In this document: positions 26,906-35,127 of the stretch, in pieces
Layout of the letters: each line of letters begins with the position of its first letter
Position numbering within the stretch: the first letter of the stretch is position 1
Origin: an uncultured Candidatus Rokubacteria bacterium
Lineage (GTDB): Bacteria; Methylomirabilota; Methylomirabilia; Rokubacteriales; CSP1-6
Assembly (NCBI GenBank): GCA_963762145.1
Contig: CAVXJS010000017.1
Span: 52,741-116,740 of the forward strand
DNA length: 64,000 nucleotides
Reading direction: 5' to 3'
Position numbers and translations under genes: made by a program
The notes under the pieces: generated by a model
Told to the model about the DNA's origin: nothing
Seen by the model: only the letters and a program-made list of their open reading frames with translations
The model's database searches: none

Positions 26906-26945
26906 AGGTTGGCAGCGTACCGGAGTGGCAGCAGAGGAGCCGACG

Positions 26946-28074
26946 ATGGCTAAACCGATCATATCCGCCGACTCGCACATCACGGAGCCGCCGGACACGT
27001 ACACGGCCCGGATCGAGCGGCGCTTCAAGGACCGCGCGCCCCACGTCGTCCGCGACCCGAAGCGCGGGGACCTCTTCGTCATCGAGGGCATCGACAAGCC
27101 GATCCCGATGGGCCTGGTCGCCGCCGCCGGCAAGCCGGCGGAGGAGCTGACGAAGTTCGGCGCGCGCTTCGAGGACATGCACCGCGGCGGCTGGGACCCG
27201 GAGGCGCGCCTCGCGGACCAGGAGCGGGACGGCGTCGCGGCCGAGGTGCTCTACCCGACGGTCGGCATGATGCTGTGCAACCATCCCGACGTCGAGTTCA
27301 AGCAGGCGTGCTTCGACGCCTACAACCTGTGGATCGCCGAGTACTGCGCCACGCATCCGGACCGGCTCATCGGGGTCGGGCCAGACCGCGGTGCGCTCGG
27401 TCGCCGACGGCATCCGCGACCTCGAGCGGATGAAGGCCCTCGGGCTCCGGGGCGTCATGATGCCCGGCAATCCCGGCGTGGCCGACTACGACGACCCGAT
27501 GTACGACCCGCTCTGGGAGGCGGCGGTGGATCTGGCCTGCCCGCTGAGCTTCCACATTCTCACGAGCCAGCAGCGACACGTTCCGGGTGCGCGGGTCCGA
27601 AGATCAACGCGTTCATGTCGATCATCCGCGGCTGCCAGGACATCATCGGCACGTTCATCTTCAGCGGCGTGTTCGAGCGCCAGCCGAGACTCCGGCTGGT
27701 GTGCGTCGAGGCCGACGCGGGCTGGGTACCCCACTTCATGTACCGCATGGACCACGCGTGGGAGCGTCACCGCTACTGGCTGACCGGAGGGCCGCTCACC
27801 CGGCTGCCGAGCGAGTACTTCCGCGAGCACATCTACGCCACGTTCCAGGACGACTGGGTGGCCTTCCAGGTGAAGGACCTCTGCAATATCCGCCGGCTCA
27901 TGTGGGCGAACGACTTCCCGCACAGCGATTCCACGTGGCCGAATTCGCAGGCGGTGCTCGCGAAGCAGGCCGGCGCACCTCACCGAGGCGGAGCGCGACC
28001 TCATCCTCCACGACAACGTGGCCGAGCTCTACGGGCTCGGCGTCGGCGCGCCGACGGGCGGAGGCGCCTCGTGA
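26946..28074 (+). CDS. Amidohydrolase_2 family protein (frameshifts near 27380, 27575 and 27970)
   Basis: ISADSHITEP, DGVAAEVLYPT, PLSFHIL (shifted frame), VEADAGW, MWANDFPHSDSTWP, ILHDNVAELY. Confidence 0.9.
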
Positions 28075-29213
28075 AGGTCGGGGTCGCCCTCAACATGCTC
28101 CAGAAGCCGGGGCTCTCGGACGCCGCGGTGTTCGCCGAGCACATGGCGCTGGGCGACCTCGCCGAGCCCCTGGGCTTCGACTCGCTCTTCGCCCTCGAGC
28201 ACCACTTCACCGGCTACGCCATGTCGCCCTCTCCGATCCAGCTGCTCAGCTACTACGCGGGGCGCACGAAGCGCATCACGCTCGGCACCGCGGTCATCGT
28301 GCTGCCGTGGCACGATCCGATCCGGGTGGCCGAGCAGATCGCCCTCCTCGACGTGATGTCGGGGGGCCGCTGCCTGTTCGGGTTCGGGCGGGGCGCGGCG
28401 AGCGTCGAGTACGCGGGCTTCCGCATCCCGATGGAGGAGGCCCGGCCGCGGTTCGTGGAGGCGGCGAAGATCATCGTCACCGCGCTCACCCAGGACGCGT
28501 TCGAGTGGGAGGGCGAGTTCTTCCGGATCCCGCGCACCTCGATCCGCCCGCGTCCGATCTCGCATCCCGAGCGCCGCTTCTACGCGTCGTCGGTGAGCCC
28601 GGAGTCCGCCGAGATCATGGCGAAGCTCGGCTTCGGGATCCTCGTCATCATGCAGAACGAGTGGCCGAAGGCGGCCCAGGACATCCACCGATACCAGGAG
28701 CTGTCGCGGAGCGTCGGCCACGCGCCGCGCCCGCCGATCATCCTCACCAACGTCTCGGTGGCGGAGAGCCGGGCCGAGGCGCACGAGCGCGCGGGATGCT
28801 ACCTCGCGCGCAAGTGGGACTCGATCGACACGCACTACCACTTCTCGGACGGCCACCTCGCGAACGTGAAGGGGTACGAGTTCTACGGCGGGATGGCGAA
28901 GACGTACTCGAAGATGAAGGACGAGAGCTACCGGAAGAAGGCGACCGAGTTCTACGTGAAGATCCAGGTGACCGGCACGCCGGACGACTGCATCCAGCAG
29001 GTCGCCGAGCTGCGCCGGCTCACCGGCCTCGATCATCTCGTCACCGAGTTCGGCTTCGGCGGCATGCCGCACGAGGAGGCCGAGCTCAACATGCGCCTCT
29101 TCGCGGATCGGGTGGTGCCCGTCCTGCAGCGGGACTCGGCGTTCACGCGCGCCGAGAGCCCGGTCGACGCCGGCGAGGTGTCATCGGGACCCGGCGTCTT
29201 CGCTCCCGCGTAG
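28071..29213 (+). CDS. LLM class flavin-dependent oxidoreductase
   Basis: GFDSLFALEHHFTGY, LPWHDPIRVAEQIALLD..SGGR..FGFGRG; GTG overlaps the upstream TGA. Confidence 0.93.
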   Translation: MKVGVALNMLQKPGLSDAAVFAEHMALGDLAEPLGFDSLFALEHHFTGYAMSPSPIQLLSYYAGRTKRITLGTAVIVLPWHDPIRVAEQIALLDVMSGGRCLFGFGRGAASVEYAGFRIPMEEARPRFVEAAKIIVTALTQDAFEWEGEFFRIPRTSIRPRPISHPERRFYASSVSPESAEIMAKLGFGILVIMQNEWPKAAQDIHRYQELSRSVGHAPRPPIILTNVSVAESRAEAHERAGCYLARKWDSIDTHYHFSDGHLANVKGYEFYGGMAKTYSKMKDESYRKKATEFYVKIQVTGTPDDCIQQVAELRRLTGLDHLVTEFGFGGMPHEEAELNMRLFADRVVPVLQRDSAFTRAESPVDAGEVSSGPGVFAPA

Positions 29214-29234
29214 CTCCCTACCTGAGAGGCCGAC

Positions 29235-30952
29235 ATGACCTACGACCTGGTGATCCGCGGCGGCACCGTGGTCGATGGCTCCGGGCTCCCGCGCTACCGC
29301 GCCGACGTGGGCATCCGCGGGCGATCGCATCGCGCGCATCGGCACCATCCACGCGCGGGGGCGCGAGGAGGTCGACGCGCGCCACCAGGTCGTCGCGCCC
29401 GGCTTCATCGACGGCCACACCCACATGGACGCGCAGGTGGCGTGGGATCCGCTCGGCACGTGCTCGTGCTGGCACGGGGTGACCAGCGTCGTCATGGGCA
29501 ACTGCGGCTTCACGCTGGCGCCCTGCCGGCCCGACGAGCGGCACCTGGTCGTGCGCAACCTCGAGCGCGCCGAGGACATCCCGGCCGAGGCGATGGAGGC
29601 GGGCATCGACTGGACGTGGGAGACGTACGCGCAGTACCTCGACGCCGTCGCGCGCTGGCCGAAGGGCATCAACTACGCGGGCTACGTCGGCCACTCGGCG
29701 CTGCGCACCTACGCCATGGGCGAGCGCGCGTTCTCCGAGCCGGCCACCGCCGCAGGACCTGGCGGTGATGAAGCGCGAGCTGGCGGACGCGCTGGCCGCG
29801 GGGGCGATGGGGTTCACGACCTCGCGCACCCGCAACCACGAGACGGCGGACCGGCGGCCGGTGGCCAGCCGCGTCGCCGAGTGGGGCGAGGTGCGCGAGC
29901 TGGTGCGGGTGATGGGCGACCTCGGCGCGCGGCATCTTCGAGATCGCCGGCGAGGACACGGGCCGCGACCCCGACCGCCAGCGCGACTACCTCGGCCGGC
30001 TGCGCGATCTGGCGGTGGAGACCGGCGTGCCGGTCACGTGGGGCATGTTCAGCTCGCGCTTCGCGCCGGACGCCTGGCGCGCGTACTTCGACCATGCTCG
30101 ACGAGACCGCGCGCGCCGGCGGGCGCATGTTCGCCCAGGTGCACAGCCGCGCGCTCGCGGTGCGTGCTCTCGTTCGAGACGCGGCTGCCCTTCGACCGCC
30201 TGCCCGAGTGGCGCGAGCTGCGCCGGCGCCCGCTCGACGAGCAGCGCGCTGCTCCTGCGCGACGCCGACGTGCGCCGGCGGCTGGTGAAGGCGGCCGCCG
30301 AGGCGGAGTACGGCCGCGTCGTCGGCGCCGAGGCCCGGAAGCCCGACTACGAGTGGATCGATGCTCATGGAGGATCCGTGCGGACCGCACCGGTCGATCG
30401 CCGAGATCGCGCGCGAGCGCGGCGTGGATCCGGTGGAGGCCATGATCGAGCTCGCGCTGGAGCGCGACCTCAAGGCGTTCTTCGTCCAGCCGCTGTTCAA
30501 CGAGAACCTCGACCACGTGCTGGAGATGATGAAGCACCCGCGCTCGGTGGTGACGTTCTCCGATTCCGGCGCGCACGTCTCCCAGATCATGGACTCGTCG
30601 CTGCAGACCCAGGTGCTCGCCTACTGGGTGCGCCGCCGCCAGGCGCTCACCCTCGAGGAGGGCGGTGCGGATGCTGAGCCTCGAGCCGGCGTCGGCGTGG
30701 GGCCTCCACGAGCGCGGGCTGCTGCGCGAGGGGCTGGCCGCCGACGTGATCGTCTTCGATCCCGACCGCGTGGCCCCCGACATGCCCGAGGTGGTGAACG
30801 ACCTGCCCGCCGGCGCCCGGCGCCTGCGCCAGAAGGCCACCGGCTTCCACGCCTCGATCGTCAACGGCCAGGTGGTGCTGCGCGACGGGGAGCACACGGG
30901 CGCGTTCCCCGGCCGCGTCCTCCGCGGGCCCCTCGCCGGGGCAGGCCGCTGA
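29235..30952 (+). CDS. N-acyl-D-amino acid deacylase family amidohydrolase (multiple frameshifts)
   Basis: YDLVIRGGTVVDGSG; APGFIDGHTHMD; GVTSVVMGNCGF; SDSGAHV; RGLLREGLAADVIVFD; DLPAGARRL, spread over alternating frames. Confidence 0.9.
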
Positions 30953-30965
30953 GTCGACGCGGCGC

Positions 30966-31433
30966 ATGATTCCCGATCGGGTAGTGGAGGCCTTCGAGGG
31001 CCCGGCCTATGTCCAGATCGGGAGCCGGGACGAAGCACTCCGACCCAAGCACACGATGGCGGTCGGCGCCATGGTCCACCCCGATCGGCAGACGGTGACC
31101 GTGTTCGTCCCGGCCGCGCGCTCCGAGCGGGTGCTGCGCGACCTGACGCGGAACGGTCGGATCGCGGTCAACGCCGGGCTCGCCAGCCACGAGGCCTATC
31201 AGCTCAAGGGGACGTACATCTCGTCGCGGCCCACCGACGACGCCGACCGGGCCCGCCAGGAGGTCTACCGCGCTGCGCTGCTGCAGTCCGCCCTCGAGGC
31301 CGGGTATCCGGAGGGCCTGGCGCGAAGCTTCTGCCTGGGCTACGCCTATGCGCCGGGCGTGGCGATCACCTTTCGCGCGGAGGAAGTGTTCCTGCAGACG
31401 CCCGGCCCCGGCGCCGGCACCCGCCTCTCCTGA
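30966..31433 (+). CDS. Pyridoxamine 5'-phosphate oxidase-like (flavin split-barrel) protein A
   Basis: IGSRD..LRP, DLTRNGRIAV, HEAYQLKG, EEVFLQTPGPGAG. Confidence 0.78.
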   Translation: MIPDRVVEAFEGPAYVQIGSRDEALRPKHTMAVGAMVHPDRQTVTVFVPAARSERVLRDLTRNGRIAVNAGLASHEAYQLKGTYISSRPTDDADRARQEVYRAALLQSALEAGYPEGLARSFCLGYAYAPGVAITFRAEEVFLQTPGPGAGTRLS

Positions 31434-31450
31434 GAGGAGCGCCGCGCCCC

Positions 31451-31885
31451 GTGGGGATCCTTCCGGACGAGATCAAGGCGGCGATGCAGGGGGTGATCCC
31501 CTCGCACGTCGTGACGTGCTCGCGTGACGGCACCCCGAACGCGAGCGTCATCTCGCAGGTCTACTACGTGGACCCCGATCACGTGGCGCTCTCCCACCAG
31601 TTCTTCAACAAGACCAAGCGCAACATCGAGGAGAACCCGCGGGCGGCGGTCTCGCTGATCAGTCCCGAGACCTTCGACTCGTGGGACCTCGACCTGGAGT
31701 TCGTGCGATCCGAGACCAGCGGGCCGGTCTTCGAGGTCATGGAGATGCAGATCGAGGCCATCGCCTCCATGGTGGGGATGAAGGGGATCTTCAAGCTGCG
31801 CGCGGCCGACATCTTCCGGGTCGCCGCCGTGACGAAGACGGTCGGCGAGCGGATCCCGCCCGCGGAGATCCCCGCGCCCCGCTGA
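31451..31885 (+). CDS. Pyridoxamine 5'-phosphate oxidase-like (flavin split-barrel) protein B
   Basis: TCSRDGTPN, VALSHQFFNKTKRNIEENPRA. Confidence 0.88.
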   Translation: MGILPDEIKAAMQGVIPSHVVTCSRDGTPNASVISQVYYVDPDHVALSHQFFNKTKRNIEENPRAAVSLISPETFDSWDLDLEFVRSETSGPVFEVMEMQIEAIASMVGMKGIFKLRAADIFRVAAVTKTVGERIPPAEIPAPR

Positions 31886-31900
31886 GGCGGCGGGACCAGA

Positions 31901-33232
31901 GTGGCCACCGACCCTCGCGATACGTCGGATCTCCGAGAGCAGATCGCCCAGAACCAGCAGGCGATCGATCGGCTCAACCGCGACCTCGCCCGGCGGTCCG
32001 ACGAGATCCGGATCATCCAGCAGATCTCCTCCGAGATCACCTCCACGCTGAACCTCGACGAGGTGCTCGGGATCGTCCTGCGGGCCATGGACACCGTGCT
32101 GGGCTTCGCGCACTCGATGATCCTCCTCAAGGACCTGGGCGACGACCTCCTGCGGGTCGCGGCGACCCGCGGCTACGGGGACCAGCCCGCCGGCGCGCCG
32201 GTGCGCCTGGGAGAAGGCGTCATCGGCGTCGTCGGCGAGCGCCGGCGGATGATGCGGATGGGCAACATCGGCGCCAGCATGCGCTATGTCAAGGGCGTGC
32301 GGGCGCGGATGGAAGCGTCCGGCGAGGTCGCCCCGTCCGAGGCCCCCACCGCGGTCTTGCCCGGCCTGGCGGACGCGCAGAGTCAGCTCGCCCTGCCGCT
32401 GACCGTCAAGGACCGGCTGGTCGGGGTGCTGGCGGTGGAGAGCCGCACCCCGAACGCCTTCGACGAGCTGGACGAGGTGCTGCTGCGCATCGTCGGCAAC
32501 CAGGCGGCGACCGCGATCGACAACGCCCGCACCTATCAGATGGTGGACCAGCTCGGCCGCCTGAAGCGCTTCTTCTCGCCTCAGCTCGCCGACCTGATCA
32601 TCCGGGGCGGGGCCGACGATCCCTTGAAGACGCACCGCCGCGAGATCACCGTCGTCTTCCTCGACCTCCGCGGCTTCACCGCCTTCGCGGAGACCTCGGA
32701 GCCCGAGGAGCTGATGGGGGTGCTGCACGAGTACCATGCCGAGATGGGGCGGCTGATCCTCGCGCACGAGGGCACGCTGGAGCGGTTCACCGGCGACGGG
32801 ATGATGGTCTTCTTCAACGATCCGCTCCCGATGCCGGACGCCGCGGAGCGCGCGGTGCGGATGGCGGTGGCGATGCGGGACCGGGCCGCCGAGCTGAGCG
32901 TCGGCTGGCGCCGCAAGGGGTACGAGCTGGATCTGGGCATCGGGATCGCCAAGGGCTTCGCCACGATCGGGGCCATCGGGTTCGAGGGCCGCTGGGACTA
33001 CGGCGCCATCGGCACCGTGACGAACCTGGCCGCGCGCCTTTGCGCGGAGGCCAAGCCCGGGCAGATCCTGATCGCGCCCCGGGTGCTCCTGGAGATCGAG
33101 GCCCTCCTGGAGGTCGAGGAGCTGGGGCTCCTCACGGTGAAGGGCCTGGCGAGGCCGGTCAAGCCCCTGAACGTCGTGCGGCTCCGGGACGCGGCCAACA
33201 AGTTTGCTGCGCAGGACCCGGCCACGGGGTAG
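31901..33232 (+). CDS. Coiled coil-GAF-class III nucleotide cyclase
   Basis: GAF (GEGVIG..., SQLALPL...LVGVL, AIDNAR); cyclase FLDLRGFT, ERFTGDG, DYGAIGTVTNLAARL. Confidence 0.93.
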   Translation: MATDPRDTSDLREQIAQNQQAIDRLNRDLARRSDEIRIIQQISSEITSTLNLDEVLGIVLRAMDTVLGFAHSMILLKDLGDDLLRVAATRGYGDQPAGAPVRLGEGVIGVVGERRRMMRMGNIGASMRYVKGVRARMEASGEVAPSEAPTAVLPGLADAQSQLALPLTVKDRLVGVLAVESRTPNAFDELDEVLLRIVGNQAATAIDNARTYQMVDQLGRLKRFFSPQLADLIIRGGADDPLKTHRREITVVFLDLRGFTAFAETSEPEELMGVLHEYHAEMGRLILAHEGTLERFTGDGMMVFFNDPLPMPDAAERAVRMAVAMRDRAAELSVGWRRKGYELDLGIGIAKGFATIGAIGFEGRWDYGAIGTVTNLAARLCAEAKPGQILIAPRVLLEIEALLEVEELGLLTVKGLARPVKPLNVVRLRDAANKFAAQDPATG

Positions 33233-33278
33233 GATTCAGCCGCCACGCCCCTCGAAACGGAACGAGAGGAGAGAGACC

Positions 33279-34745
33279 ATGCACAGGCCCGTGCGGTTTG
33301 CCGATGACATCGAGCCGCTGGTGCAGTTCATCGAGGAGACCGACCCGGGCCGGATCCTCGAGGCCACCCTGGCCAAGCTGCGGGACGGCCTGTCGGTCAA
33401 GAAGCTCCTGACCGCGTCGGCGCTCGCGGTCACTCGTTCCTCGGACCTGCCGCCCGGCCACCACGGCGGGCCGCTGCACCCGCTCGTCGGGCTCCACGCG
33501 CTCCACCACACCGTCGAGCGGGTGTCGGGCGAGCAGCGATTCCTGCCGATCCTTCAGCACGTCGCGCTGTCGAACAAGCACATCAATCACCCCGGCATGG
33601 GCCCGTACATCCTGGCGGATGCCGAGCCGGTGGACGTCGGGCGGCGTCGAGGCCACGAAGAAGGCGTTCTTCGCCGCGCGTGGATCGCGGCCTGTACAAC
33701 GCGCGCGGATCACGCACTTCCTCTGGCTCTGGGACAACATCCCGCACGGCGAGGCGCTGGACCTGCTGCTGACCGTGGCGATCCCGAAGAACATGCTCGA
33801 CGATCACTACTTCATCTTCCCCATGTTCACGTGGCGCGCCCTCGACTGGCTGGGACGCGAGCACACGCCGTTCCTGATGCGTCCCGCCGTCCGCTACGTC
33901 AGCCGGTTCCCCACGCCGCCCGCGCTGCGGGACATCGAGCCGCTGCTCGACGAGTACGAGCTCCTGAAGCGTCCGCTCGGGTTCCACACGAGCCCGGATG
34001 AGACGCCGGCGATCGGTCGTCCTGGGCGAGGCGATCACCCGGTGCGACGCCTATGCCGAGATCCCGAGGATGCTCGCGAAGGCCCTCGCGGACGGTCTGT
34101 CGCTCCAGGGCACCGGCGAAGCCTTGTCGATCGGGGCCGCCGGCCTGTTCATGCGGTCGCTCACCGGCAATCCGATGGACGTGCACCTGCACACGGGCGT
34201 GAACCTGCGCCGGTATCTCCTGAAGCTGGAAGGGGTGAGCCTGCGGAACAAGCTGCTGGCGCTGCTGACGTGGCACACCGGTCCCGAGGTGCGCTCGACG
34301 CAGAACCGCATGGAGCCGCCGCCCCAGCCGGATCCGGCGGCGGTCGCGGCGCTGCCCCATCGCACCCAGGCCGCGCTGCTGGATGCGCTCGCGGAGAGCA
34401 TCTACACGCAGCCGCCGACCGACTGGTCGAAGGTCACCAATCTCGGGCTGATGCGCGCGGTGCCCGAGGTGAAGAACACCGTGAACCTCGCGCAGCAGTA
34501 CGCCGACCTCGGGTACGACCCGGATGCGCTCATCAGCCGTCTGGCCGACGATCGTCGTGCACGACAACTTCACCGAGATGCACGCCTTCAAGCACCATCA
34601 GGCGACCATCGAGGAGTTCCACGCCACCCGGCTTCCGTGGCGCTGGCGCCACCTCGTGAGCGCGGCGCAGGCGTCGGCCATCTCCTACGGCAAGAACATG
34701 GAGATCTACGAGGAGGCGGTCGAGCTCCTCCACGCGCAGAGCTAG
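33279..34745 (+). CDS. His-rich helical hypothetical protein (multiple frameshifts)
   Basis: SD GAGGAG; coding-like segments GHHGGPLH, LDDHYFIFP, NPMDVHLHTG and HDNFTEMHAFKHHQA in successive frames. Confidence 0.78.
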
Positions 34746-34770
34746 AGGAGGGGCCCGAGGGGCCCGCGTC

Positions 34771-35127
34771 TCAAAGGCGCGTGACGTTCGCCGCCACGCA
34801 CATCCAGCCGGCCCCGCGTCGCGCCCACACGTCCGTGTAGCGTCCGGCACCGGGCTGGCCGTCCGCCTTGGTGTACGTGGTGCGGGCGTGGATCAGCGCC
34901 ACGTCGCCCAGCACGCGGATGAGCACGTCCTCGATGTCGAGGTTCTTGACGGTCGACCCGCGCCCGATCTGGGCCAGGAAGCCCGCGCGGTCCAGTAGCG
35001 AGCAGTCGGGGTTGGTGTTGACGAAGTCCGCGGAGAGGTTCGCGTCGAACCACCGCACGTCCGCCTCGCTGACCGATCGGATGTACTCGCGATTGAGCGC
35101 CTCGAGCGTCGCCTGGTCGGTGGCCAT
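34771..35127 (-). CDS. NTF2/DUF4440 family protein
   Basis: LEALN..Y, DF..TNPD.S..D.AGFL..I, GDVALIHA, GRYTDVW.RR..W.CV. Confidence 0.9.
   Translation of the reverse strand: MATDQATLEALNREYIRSVSEADVRWFDANLSADFVNTNPDCSLLDRAGFLAQIGRGSTVKNLDIEDVLIRVLGDVALIHARTTYTKADGQPGAGRYTDVWARRGAGWMCVAANVTRL

Follow-up and report, generated by a model that had tools for sequence, protein, structure and literature searches.

Bacteria read their interior and their surroundings through modular domains such as PAS, GAF, H-NOX and globin, and to our knowledge new bacterial input modules are rare. In the NifL-NifA system of Azotobacter and Klebsiella, an effector with a GAF is controlled, through protein-protein contact, by a redox-sensing flavoprotein encoded separately; NifL senses through PAS-FAD, and the GAF of NifA binds 2-oxoglutarate. 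H-NOX proteins stand alone beside kinases or cyclases in some organisms and are fused to the output in soluble guanylate cyclase. The haem of DevS and DosT is located in the GAF itself, and cyanobacterial CyaB2-type cyclases carry tandem cAMP-binding GAFs. The solved small relatives of the split-barrel fold, which is the fold at issue here, are homodimers.

Within a window of 64,000 nucleotides from an uncultured Candidatus Rokubacteria bacterium, we examined three genes, A, B and C, and we consider it likely that A, B and the GAF of C form one cytoplasmic input module, which here controls a class III cyclase (Table 1). The earlier note had described two PNPOx-like genes and a GAF-cyclase gene separated by 15–17 nt, none of them encoding a transmembrane helix. 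All three ORFs are intact and lie exactly where they had been placed, with spacings of 17 nt (A to B) and 15 nt (B to C), and the Kyte-Doolittle maxima of 19-residue means (1.08, 1.05 and 1.56 for A, B and C) agree with the absence of a transmembrane helix. Compared with five relatives, both split-barrel genes are under purifying selection (dN/dS 0.20–0.32 for A and 0.09–0.29 for B). A scan of positions 30300–33700 for sigma-70 promoters and terminators found none, where shuffled sequences gave 0.2 and 0.5. A 2366-nt contig from an RNA library matches positions 30964–32796 at ~90% identity and represents a relative's A, B and most of C; it is weak evidence, since such libraries can contain DNA and a contig does not amount to a transcript. 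The RNA-library runs X17, X18 and X20 covered the stretch only partially, and we discounted the high depth at 32520–33086 as a signal of the locus because it stems from the conserved cyclase sequence of other organisms.

Table 1. Features of the A-B-C locus, in positions of the window
Feature	Position	Strand	Description and basis
Gene A	30966..31433	+	155 aa, divergent PNPOx-like split barrel; ORF list and Pfam
Gene B	31451..31885	+	144 aa, clear split barrel; Pfam and AlphaFold
Gene C	31901..33232	+	443 aa: N-terminal helix, GAF, class III cyclase
N-terminal helical segment of C (residues ~1-50)	31901..32050	+	Precedes the Pfam GAF match; sequence
GAF of C (residues 50-207)	32048..32521	+	Module-specific subtype; Pfam GAF_2
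Helical insert (C residues 121-143)	32261..32329	+	Part of a ~30-residue insert ending at conserved Y129 ... P154-G-L
Class III nucleotide cyclase domain (C residues 247-415)	32639..33145	+	Pfam Guanylate_cyc

The three genes are conserved as a unit. Among 41 related genomes, A and B occurred in exactly the same 10, each in single copy, and the order A-B-C was identical in 9/9 B-carrying relatives, with two loci ending at a contig edge inside A. Soil and marine bacteria commonly carry the module, which was found on at least 589 genome stretches and at least 483 metagenome stretches. The co-occurrence of A, B and this GAF, which the earlier note had asked to check, held up in the best 80 of each: at the genome loci, drawn from many phyla, A lay directly upstream of B at 77/80 (contig ends account for two of the three misses) and the module GAF directly downstream at 79/80, while among the metagenome loci with room on the respective side A was upstream at 67/67 and the GAF downstream at 49/49. 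All-versus-all clustering of flanking ORFs at the 80 loci revealed no other conserved neighbour gene, and the window's own flanking genes were found at 0 of 89 other loci. At locus L081 (Azospirillum oleiclasticum) a fused relative lacks an adjoining A, and at locus L028 A, a second A-type gene (A') and B stand beside a GGDEF gene with no GAF; the module can thus occasionally do without A or without the GAF. Cultured, tractable carriers include Rhizobium etli CFN42 (RHE_RS24895/24900) and Azospirillum lipoferum 4B (AZOLI_RS23320/23325), both of the DNA-binding class described below, and Denitromonas halophila; in these the module proteins carry no more specific annotation than 'hypothetical', 'PNPOx family' or 'GAF domain-containing'.

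Natural fusions join the same parts. The earlier note's expectation that other bacteria carry B joined to this GAF subtype proved accurate: B-GAF fusions make up 115 of the best 120 longer B relatives. Five of the 120 look like A-B two-domain proteins, which we did not count as true fusions because they may be frameshift read-throughs, at least two of them (P0122 and P0216) having junk-like linkers. The architecture of B followed by GAF and a tail is present in 138 of the proteins surveyed, and in P0259, P0347, P0364 and P0366 a single chain runs from A through a linker to B, GAF and tail, with the QTPGP motif of A intact. P0266 is a B-GAF-protein kinase, and P0254 joins B to an Hpt domain with no GAF. 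The four-domain model of P0364 (651 residues) has a mean pLDDT of 89.0 and a pTM of 0.76, which, for a model built on a partly unpaired alignment, is only an indirect sign of fixed domain packing.

The output of C is a clear class III cyclase, matching Pfam Guanylate_cyc (E 1.3e-19), and its closest solved counterpart is the cyclase domain of Pseudomonas aeruginosa CyaB (3r5g, E 1.4e-34). Two metal-binding Asp residues and the transition-state Asn and Arg, with roles assigned through the alignment with CyaB, are kept in the window's cyclase and in 43/43 module cyclases. At the position of the substrate-specifying Lys, 25 of these 43 have Arg and 18 have Lys; the window's cyclase has Arg, as do all 25 of its clade, and retains the Asp that partners this Lys in specifying ATP. 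The product is probably cAMP, with uncertainty arising from the Arg in place of the specificity Lys. That A, B and C are chance neighbours, or a Pycsar-type anti-phage cyclase system, is extremely improbable. Their co-conservation and the fusions exclude a chance neighbourhood. C does match the PADLOC PycC models (2.6e-18), but this reflects generic class III homology, the match to CyaB being the stronger; A and B match no PADLOC model and no effector-like gene is conserved beside the module, and we rejected a Pycsar defence system on these grounds.

Across the 80 genome loci the same GAF subtype, alignable throughout, is followed by different outputs. Cyclases fall into three lineages, with Arg (16 loci), with an HD domain (10 loci) and with Lys (9 loci); the others are a sigma-54 AAA+ with Ser/Thr kinase (15 loci), a His kinase (7 loci and one interrupted gene), a PP2C phosphatase (2 loci) and a fused DNA-binding-like tail (16 loci and one broken gene), to which the single GGDEF locus without a GAF can be added. 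On a tree of B plus GAF the output classes are clustered, needing 7 changes for 8 groups against a mean of 51.5 when shuffled. This census bears out the suggestion that outputs are exchangeable and, as far as sequence can tell, at least eight kinds of signalling output have become connected to one sensor unit. The tail domain has no match in Pfam, NCBIfam or PDB sequences; by eye, the modelled order of its strands and helices looks like an OmpR/PhoB-type winged helix. As a hint at the signal, hemerythrin or cytochrome c genes adjoin 7/16 loci of the DNA-binding class, and also the Rhizobium etli pair.

B is the better defined of the two split barrels. It matches Pfam PNPOx_N (PF01243) with an E of 3.3e-9 and 37.6 bits, above the cut-off of 28.1, and AlphaFold models it with confidence as a split barrel (pLDDT 91.4, pTM 0.83). 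Foldseek returned 109 PDB matches to this model at E <= 0.001, of which those listed are all split barrels; the best include HupZ (7kq2, E 7.4e-9, TM 0.63/0.74), an FMN-binding protein (3in6, TMq 0.72), the F420 reductase 3f7e, 1axj and the haem-handling HutZ. At the level of sequence, A and B match solved proteins only marginally (E 0.02–0.1). B carries the motif ALSxQFFNKTxxN, with C23 and H44 almost invariant and K54 present in 344/348 sequences, and this loop aligns with the basic loop of 3f7e and HutZ, which we take to be cofactor-holding.

A is a more divergent, probable member of the same fold. Its match to PNPOx_N is weak (E 0.026, 15.3 bits, below the cut-off applied to B), and its public annotation is 'hypothetical protein'; within the A family, 14/32 members match at E <= 0.01 and the two A-type proteins of locus L028 exceed the cut-off. 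Profile-profile comparison of A with B (hhalign) gave a probability of 82.7% and an E of 9.5e-6, with 84 columns aligned at 18% identity, the A profile aligned with HupZ over its full length, C-terminal motif included (E 0.044), and in the P0364 model the strand and helix order of the A part matches a split barrel. On these profile comparisons A and B are distant paralogues. The cofactor loop conserved in B is missing from A, which has instead the motif SHExYQxKG (H75, Q79, K81, G82) and a C-terminal QTPGPGAG; among 97 sequences H75 is kept in 91, K81 in 96 and QTPGP in 88–90.

Because split-barrel relatives bind haem, FMN or F420, the fold does not name the ligand of the module. F420 is unlikely as a common ligand: B scores only 27.7 bits against TIGR03618 (cut-off 79.05), and CofH scores above its cut-off in the genome from which the window comes (447.8 bits) but in 0/5 module-bearing genomes of other phyla. 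Flavin is one of at least two candidate ligand classes, haem being another. For haem, PMC11602992 places the axial His of the HugZ/HutZ haem oxygenases in a C-terminal loop; the conserved H75 of A sits in a strand, and B terminates shortly after its last strand, without a conserved C-terminal His.

The GAF of C matches Pfam GAF_2 (E 4.7e-15, 56.4 bits, cut-off 28.6). Its nearest solved relative by profile is PtsP (3ci6, E 1.2e-17; also 3trc), and its best NCBIfam neighbour is NifA, far under the NifA cut-off. Against 3ci6 and 3trc the GAF profile matches in two pieces, 2–93 and 123–174, leaving ~29 positions without a counterpart. In the P0364 model the equivalent stretch is predicted to form a helix (residues 436–452) and then a loop to a conserved LPGL; together with the split profile, this corroborates the helical insert that the earlier note had read in the GAF. 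The insert is conserved, with Y129 in 220/237 and P154 in 233/237 sequences. A mutual-information scan of B against the GAF (240 pairs, Neff 107) ranked B98 and B99 with C122 highest, and insert positions were not enriched among the top 50 pairs (10 against 9.8 expected), in an analysis that shared ancestry confounds. Ahead of the GAF, residues 8–49 of C have 67% hydrophobic residues at a/d positions by a crude heptad count, and the N-terminal helix is a possible dimerisation or docking helix.

These features suggest how the module might work. A and B would pair as a heterodimer, as known split-barrel members form dimers, and the pair would offer a single, asymmetric site for a ligand or cofactor. 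To this site B would supply its conserved loop, where relatives hold a flavin phosphate or haem propionate, and A, its own loop lost, would contribute H75, K81 and the C-terminal QTPGPGAG loop. The dimer may then dock on the specialised GAF, probably through the helical insert and the N-terminal helix, such that a change in the ligand (its redox state, gas binding or occupancy) would pass from the GAF along the linker helix into the dimeric cyclase, altering cNMP synthesis. Our data show the genes and their folds, the strict co-conservation, the fusions, the swapping of outputs and the intact catalytic residues; the heterodimer, its docking, the nature of the signal and the direction of regulation are inferred.

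An unlikely alternative is that A and B act as an oxidoreductase or haem degrader that makes or uses the ligand of the GAF, an enzyme and its receptor that the fusions merely keep together. Haem oxygenases encoded next to bacteriophytochromes are an analogue of such a pair. In its favour, the nearest folds to B include enzymes, among them the F420 reductase and the haem-handling HutZ and HupZ, and GAFs bind ligands themselves, the nearest solved relatives here being of PtsP and NifA type; haem degraders also exist within the split-barrel superfamily, as PMC11602992 describes. Several features argue the other way: A lacks the cofactor loop of B, as would be expected of a sensor more than of a symmetrical enzyme, this GAF subtype is without the conserved Cys that a covalent bilin binder needs, B (mean column identity across phyla 61%) is more conserved than most enzymes of the fold, and the four-domain fusion was modelled as a single compact body.

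Quite unlikely, too, is that the GAF is the true sensor and that A and B only modulate it, for example as a partner that stabilises or inhibits it or as a chaperone that loads a cofactor, while sensing nothing themselves. Haem-binding GAFs are known, and those of DevS and DosT appear when this GAF is compared with the PDB; PMC11602992 describes a proposed role as haem chaperone for HupZ, to which the fold of B is most similar. Locus L028 with its GGDEF gene and P0254 with its Hpt domain carry B with no GAF, so that there B is hardly a mere helper of the GAF.

The reading we prefer is that A, B and the GAF act as one input unit, and this unit is widespread in bacteria and apparently undescribed. 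We found no description of a split-barrel/GAF sensor family in NCBIfam or in the openly accessible articles that our search covered, and atlas annotations of the module proteins read only 'PNPOx family' and 'hypothetical protein'. We suggest, tentatively, that the A/B heterodimer and the insert-bearing GAF may constitute a new, phylum-spanning family of cytoplasmic haem or flavin sensors for oxygen, nitric oxide or redox state. If so, its reach would be comparable to that of H-NOX, FixL-type PAS or globin-coupled sensors, with one input feeding cNMP, c-di-GMP, His-kinase, Ser/Thr-kinase, PP2C and transcriptional outputs. Finding the ligand would assign a signal to hundreds of kinases, cyclases, phosphatases and regulators together, and the natural split and fused forms would allow the control of a GAF by an accessory sensor to be studied directly.

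Set beside described systems, the module shares single features with each. The best fold matches of B, namely HupZ, HutZ, the Desulfovibrio FMN-binding protein and MSMEG_3380, are likewise small single-domain split barrels, but they share 15–20% identity and are uncoupled from GAF proteins. The GAF of PtsP (EI-Ntr) is the closest solved GAF, but it lacks the insert and stands in another protein context. DevS and DosT resemble the module as cytoplasmic GAF sensors with kinase output, although their match is limited to C-terminal positions of the GAF profile (126–178) and they have no accessory split-barrel pair. CyaB and cyanobacterial CyaB2 (1ykd is among the GAF matches) have in common with C the layout of GAF followed by class III cyclase; the module differs in its Arg for Lys, its single insert-bearing GAF, and A and B, which have no counterpart there. 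NifL-NifA, in which we know of no split barrel, B-like fusion or family of swapped outputs, offers the parallel of a separate sensor protein and a GAF effector, with NifA also the closest NCBIfam family to this GAF. H-NOX has an unrelated fold, acts as a single protein and not a pair, and has no GAF adaptor, but like the module it is a small cofactor sensor that is encoded beside varied outputs and elsewhere fused.

The three genes of the window, encoding the split-barrel proteins A and B and the GAF-cyclase C, were found to be intact + strand open reading frames separated by 17 nt (A/B) and 15 nt (B/C), and a hydrophobicity scan of all three identified no stretch of membrane-helix strength, in agreement with the earlier note's description of closely spaced genes without a transmembrane helix. 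The GTG start of B follows an AGGAG motif by approximately 10 nt. Against Pfam, B matched PNPOx_N clearly (3.3e-9) and A weakly (0.026), with 14 of 32 A-family members reaching PNPOx_N at E <= 0.01, and C contains a GAF domain at residues 50–207 and a class III cyclase at 247–415. Aligned with hhalign (probability 82.7%, E 9.5e-6, 18% identity), A and B are distant paralogues. The low dN/dS against five relatives (0.20–0.32 for A, 0.09–0.29 for B) indicates that both are real, constrained genes. Genes in the flanks of the module (window 26925-30952 and 33204-34840) run through several frames in succession, with A, B and C intact between them, and these breaks reflect either many single-base indel assembly errors or pseudogenes. 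Window ORF 26925-29213 contains a luciferase-like monooxygenase gene, which lies just upstream of the module. The window's genome has a G+C content of ~70%, the closest B relatives carry Methylomirabilota/Rokubacteria names in their sources, and soil metagenomes from several studies contain the stretch. A relative ~90% identical is represented in an RNA library by one 2366-nt contig covering A, B and most of C, a weak sign of expression.

Coordinates of features in the window and in loci carrying a B relative in other genomes or metagenomes (L-handles)
Feature	Position	Strand	Remark
Gene A	30966-31433	+	intact ORF, 155 aa
Gene B	31451-31885	+	intact ORF, 144 aa
Gene C	31901-33232	+	intact ORF, 443 aa
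Amidohydrolase + luciferase-like monooxygenase stretch	within window 26925-30952		upstream of module; broken across frames
Amidohydro_3 gene	~29235-30952		upstream flank; broken across frames
Unnamed gene	~33204-34840		downstream flank; broken across frames
Arg for Lys	window 32786-32791 (C residues 296-297)	+	also loci L001-L025, whole Rokubacteria-type clade
TTAGG-type repeats, three or four at 11-bp spacing	L059 and L065 8104-8141	-	just upstream of hemerythrin gene
TTAGG-type repeats, three or four, 11-bp spacing	L146 4415-4441; L166 4480-4517; L168 145-171		40-90 nt upstream of A, three metagenome loci

Among 41 related genomes B was present in 10, and in all nine carriers besides the window's own genome A, B and C were adjacent with their order kept, the contig ending inside A in two. 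Searching the same 41 genomes with an A profile returned the identical 10, each with a single copy adjoining B. Across a sample of the phylum B was found in 18/201 genomes (9/104 of the high-quality ones), so that the module is accessory. A cross-phylum scan with one genome per species yielded at least 589 stretches encoding a B relative. In this survey of the neighbourhoods of B homologues, of the kind that the earlier note proposed, local profiles placed A directly upstream in 77 and the module GAF directly downstream in 79 of the best 80 of these; two of the three loci missing A are contig ends, and one (L081) is truly without it. Scanning metagenome contigs independently yielded at least 483 stretches; among the best 80, every locus with over 520 nt of upstream sequence carried A (67/67), and every locus with over 750 nt of downstream sequence carried the GAF (49/49). 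The flanks of the module in the window matched none of the other 89 loci, and no further conserved gene was found beside the module in the best 80 genome loci.

The earlier note's statement that B is fused to this GAF subtype in other bacteria is correct: 115 of the 120 best longer B relatives are B-GAF proteins of ~455–490 aa, and local profiles show B, the GAF and, at the C-terminus, a tail (T) of ~120 residues in 138 proteins. Additionally, four 50%-identity representatives of 629–660 aa (P0259, P0347, P0364 and P0366) carry A, a linker, B, GAF and T in a single chain, with the QTPGP of A in place. One protein (P0266) is a B-GAF-protein kinase and another (P0254) a B-Hpt-sugar transferase. 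Five proteins that look like A-B two-domain chains may owe this to frameshifts and were left out of the fusion evidence. The natural fusion P0364 was folded from a 94-row alignment whose rows were 4 full fusions, 60 proteins of the B-GAF-T type and, unpaired with these, 30 of the A type. For the 651 residues the mean pLDDT was 89.0 and the pTM 0.76, and confidence was low in the linkers only; for four domains, this pTM suggests that the model fixes the domains relative to each other, which supports the assembly indirectly.

All output classes can be aligned over the GAF subtype and its insert, and the part behind the GAF differs, consistent with the exchangeable outputs proposed previously: cyclases, kinases, a phosphatase, AAA+ and T tails all occur behind it.

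Outputs in the best 80 genome and best 80 metagenome loci (GAF not assessable in 15/80 metagenome loci)
Output	Genome loci	Metagenome loci
Cyclase with Arg at specificity position (window's type)	16/80	15/80
Cyclase then HD domain	10/80	
Cyclase with Lys	9/80	
Sigma-54 AAA+ plus Ser/Thr kinase	15/80	18/80
HisKA-HATPase kinase	7/80 + one interrupted gene	1/80
PP2C/SpoIIE phosphatase	2/80	2/80
Fused B-GAF-T	16/80 + one broken gene	9/80
GGDEF gene after A, A', B, without GAF	1/80	
Frameshift-broken	2/80	
Tail cut at contig end		20/80

On a B+GAF tree (82 rows, quick search) the output classes cluster, with 7 changes for 8 groups against a shuffled mean of 51.5, and a branch with 99% support separates the fused T class from all split forms. 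Output swaps were therefore a handful of events at deep branches of the family, after which every form spread, between phyla as well. The combination of module GAF, sigma-54-type AAA+ and Ser/Thr protein kinase, seen in one chain of ~790–900 residues at loci L032, L034, L042, L050 and L053, is an unusual output that is common in Vicinamibacterales. In an alphaproteobacterial locus (L028 4912-7251), B is preceded by two A-type genes and followed by the gene of a GGDEF diguanylate cyclase without a GAF domain, suggesting that the split-barrel unit can couple to an output without GAF too. At another locus (L027 6477-9332), an insertion of ~1.2 kb splits the GAF-histidine kinase gene in two halves.

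The nearest solved GAF in a profile search was that of PtsP (1.2e-17), the match splitting in two around ~29 profile positions. This break supports the insert that had been read from the sequence as helical, and the equivalent stretch of the P0364 model is a helix (residues 436–452) followed by a loop to LPGL. The insert holds Y129 (220/237), ends at P154-G-L and is 31–34 residues long in 30/32 sequences. The cyclase domain of C is nearest P. aeruginosa CyaB (1.4e-34), and it retains both metal Asp as well as the transition-state Asn and Arg. In relatives a Lys, with a partner Asp, specifies adenine. The window has Arg at this Lys position, as do all 25 members of its clade (25/43 module cyclases), the partner Asp being kept, which makes the nucleotide product of the Rokubacteria-type lineage uncertain.

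Judged by its sequences, the conservation of B is unusually strong, with a mean column identity of 61% over 32 sequences from many phyla; N30, S35, D41, Q50, F51, K54, N58, G91 and F94 are kept in 344–348 of 348 sequences, C23 in 313/348 and H44 in 320/348. In A, H75 (91/97), K81 (96/97) and a C-terminal QTPGPxAG (88–90/97) are conserved, Q79 and G82 are kept too, and the cofactor-type loop of B is not. AlphaFold models B with confidence (pLDDT 91.4, pTM 0.83), and Foldseek groups the model with small single-domain split barrels, including HupZ (7.4e-9), the FMN-binding protein 3in6 (TMq 0.72), the F420 reductase MSMEG_3380, a Desulfovibrio FMN-binding protein and HutZ. The ligands of these neighbours are haem, FMN or F420, and according to PMC11602992 the split-barrel superfamily also takes in haem sensors that are not enzymes, and a protein proposed to be a haem chaperone.

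A CofH match above cut-off lies beside a CofD match in the window's genome (contig C19 301241-305287), and on gene content the organism probably makes F420. F420 is an unlikely common ligand, since B falls far below the TIGR03618 cut-off and CofH was above cut-off in 0/5 module-bearing genomes from other phyla. Hemerythrin genes adjoin 4/16 and cytochrome c genes 3/16 of the loci of the putative DNA-binding class (T), and the module pair of Rhizobium etli CFN42 likewise has a cytochrome c gene behind it; these neighbours hint at oxygen, NO, iron or redox as the signal. The strand/helix order of T in the P0364 model would fit a winged helix. A set of three TTAGG spaced by 11 bp (<= 1 mismatch) was found in 3/17 T-class genome loci versus 0/63 others, and such repeats, confined to T-class loci, are operator candidates for the B-GAF-T regulator.

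No NCBIfam model reached cut-off for A, B-GAF-T or the fusions. Public sources name the proteins of the module 'hypothetical protein', 'PNPOx family protein' or 'GAF domain-containing protein', and full-text searches of the open literature found neither a description of a sensor built from split barrels and a GAF nor a mention of the Rhizobium etli locus tags. Together, gene order, co-occurrence and natural fusions strongly support a three-part cytoplasmic sensor with exchangeable outputs. We infer that A and B may form a heterodimer that would dock on the GAF and respond to a flavin or redox signal. The module would be a modular signal-transduction input in which known folds are brought together in a new arrangement.
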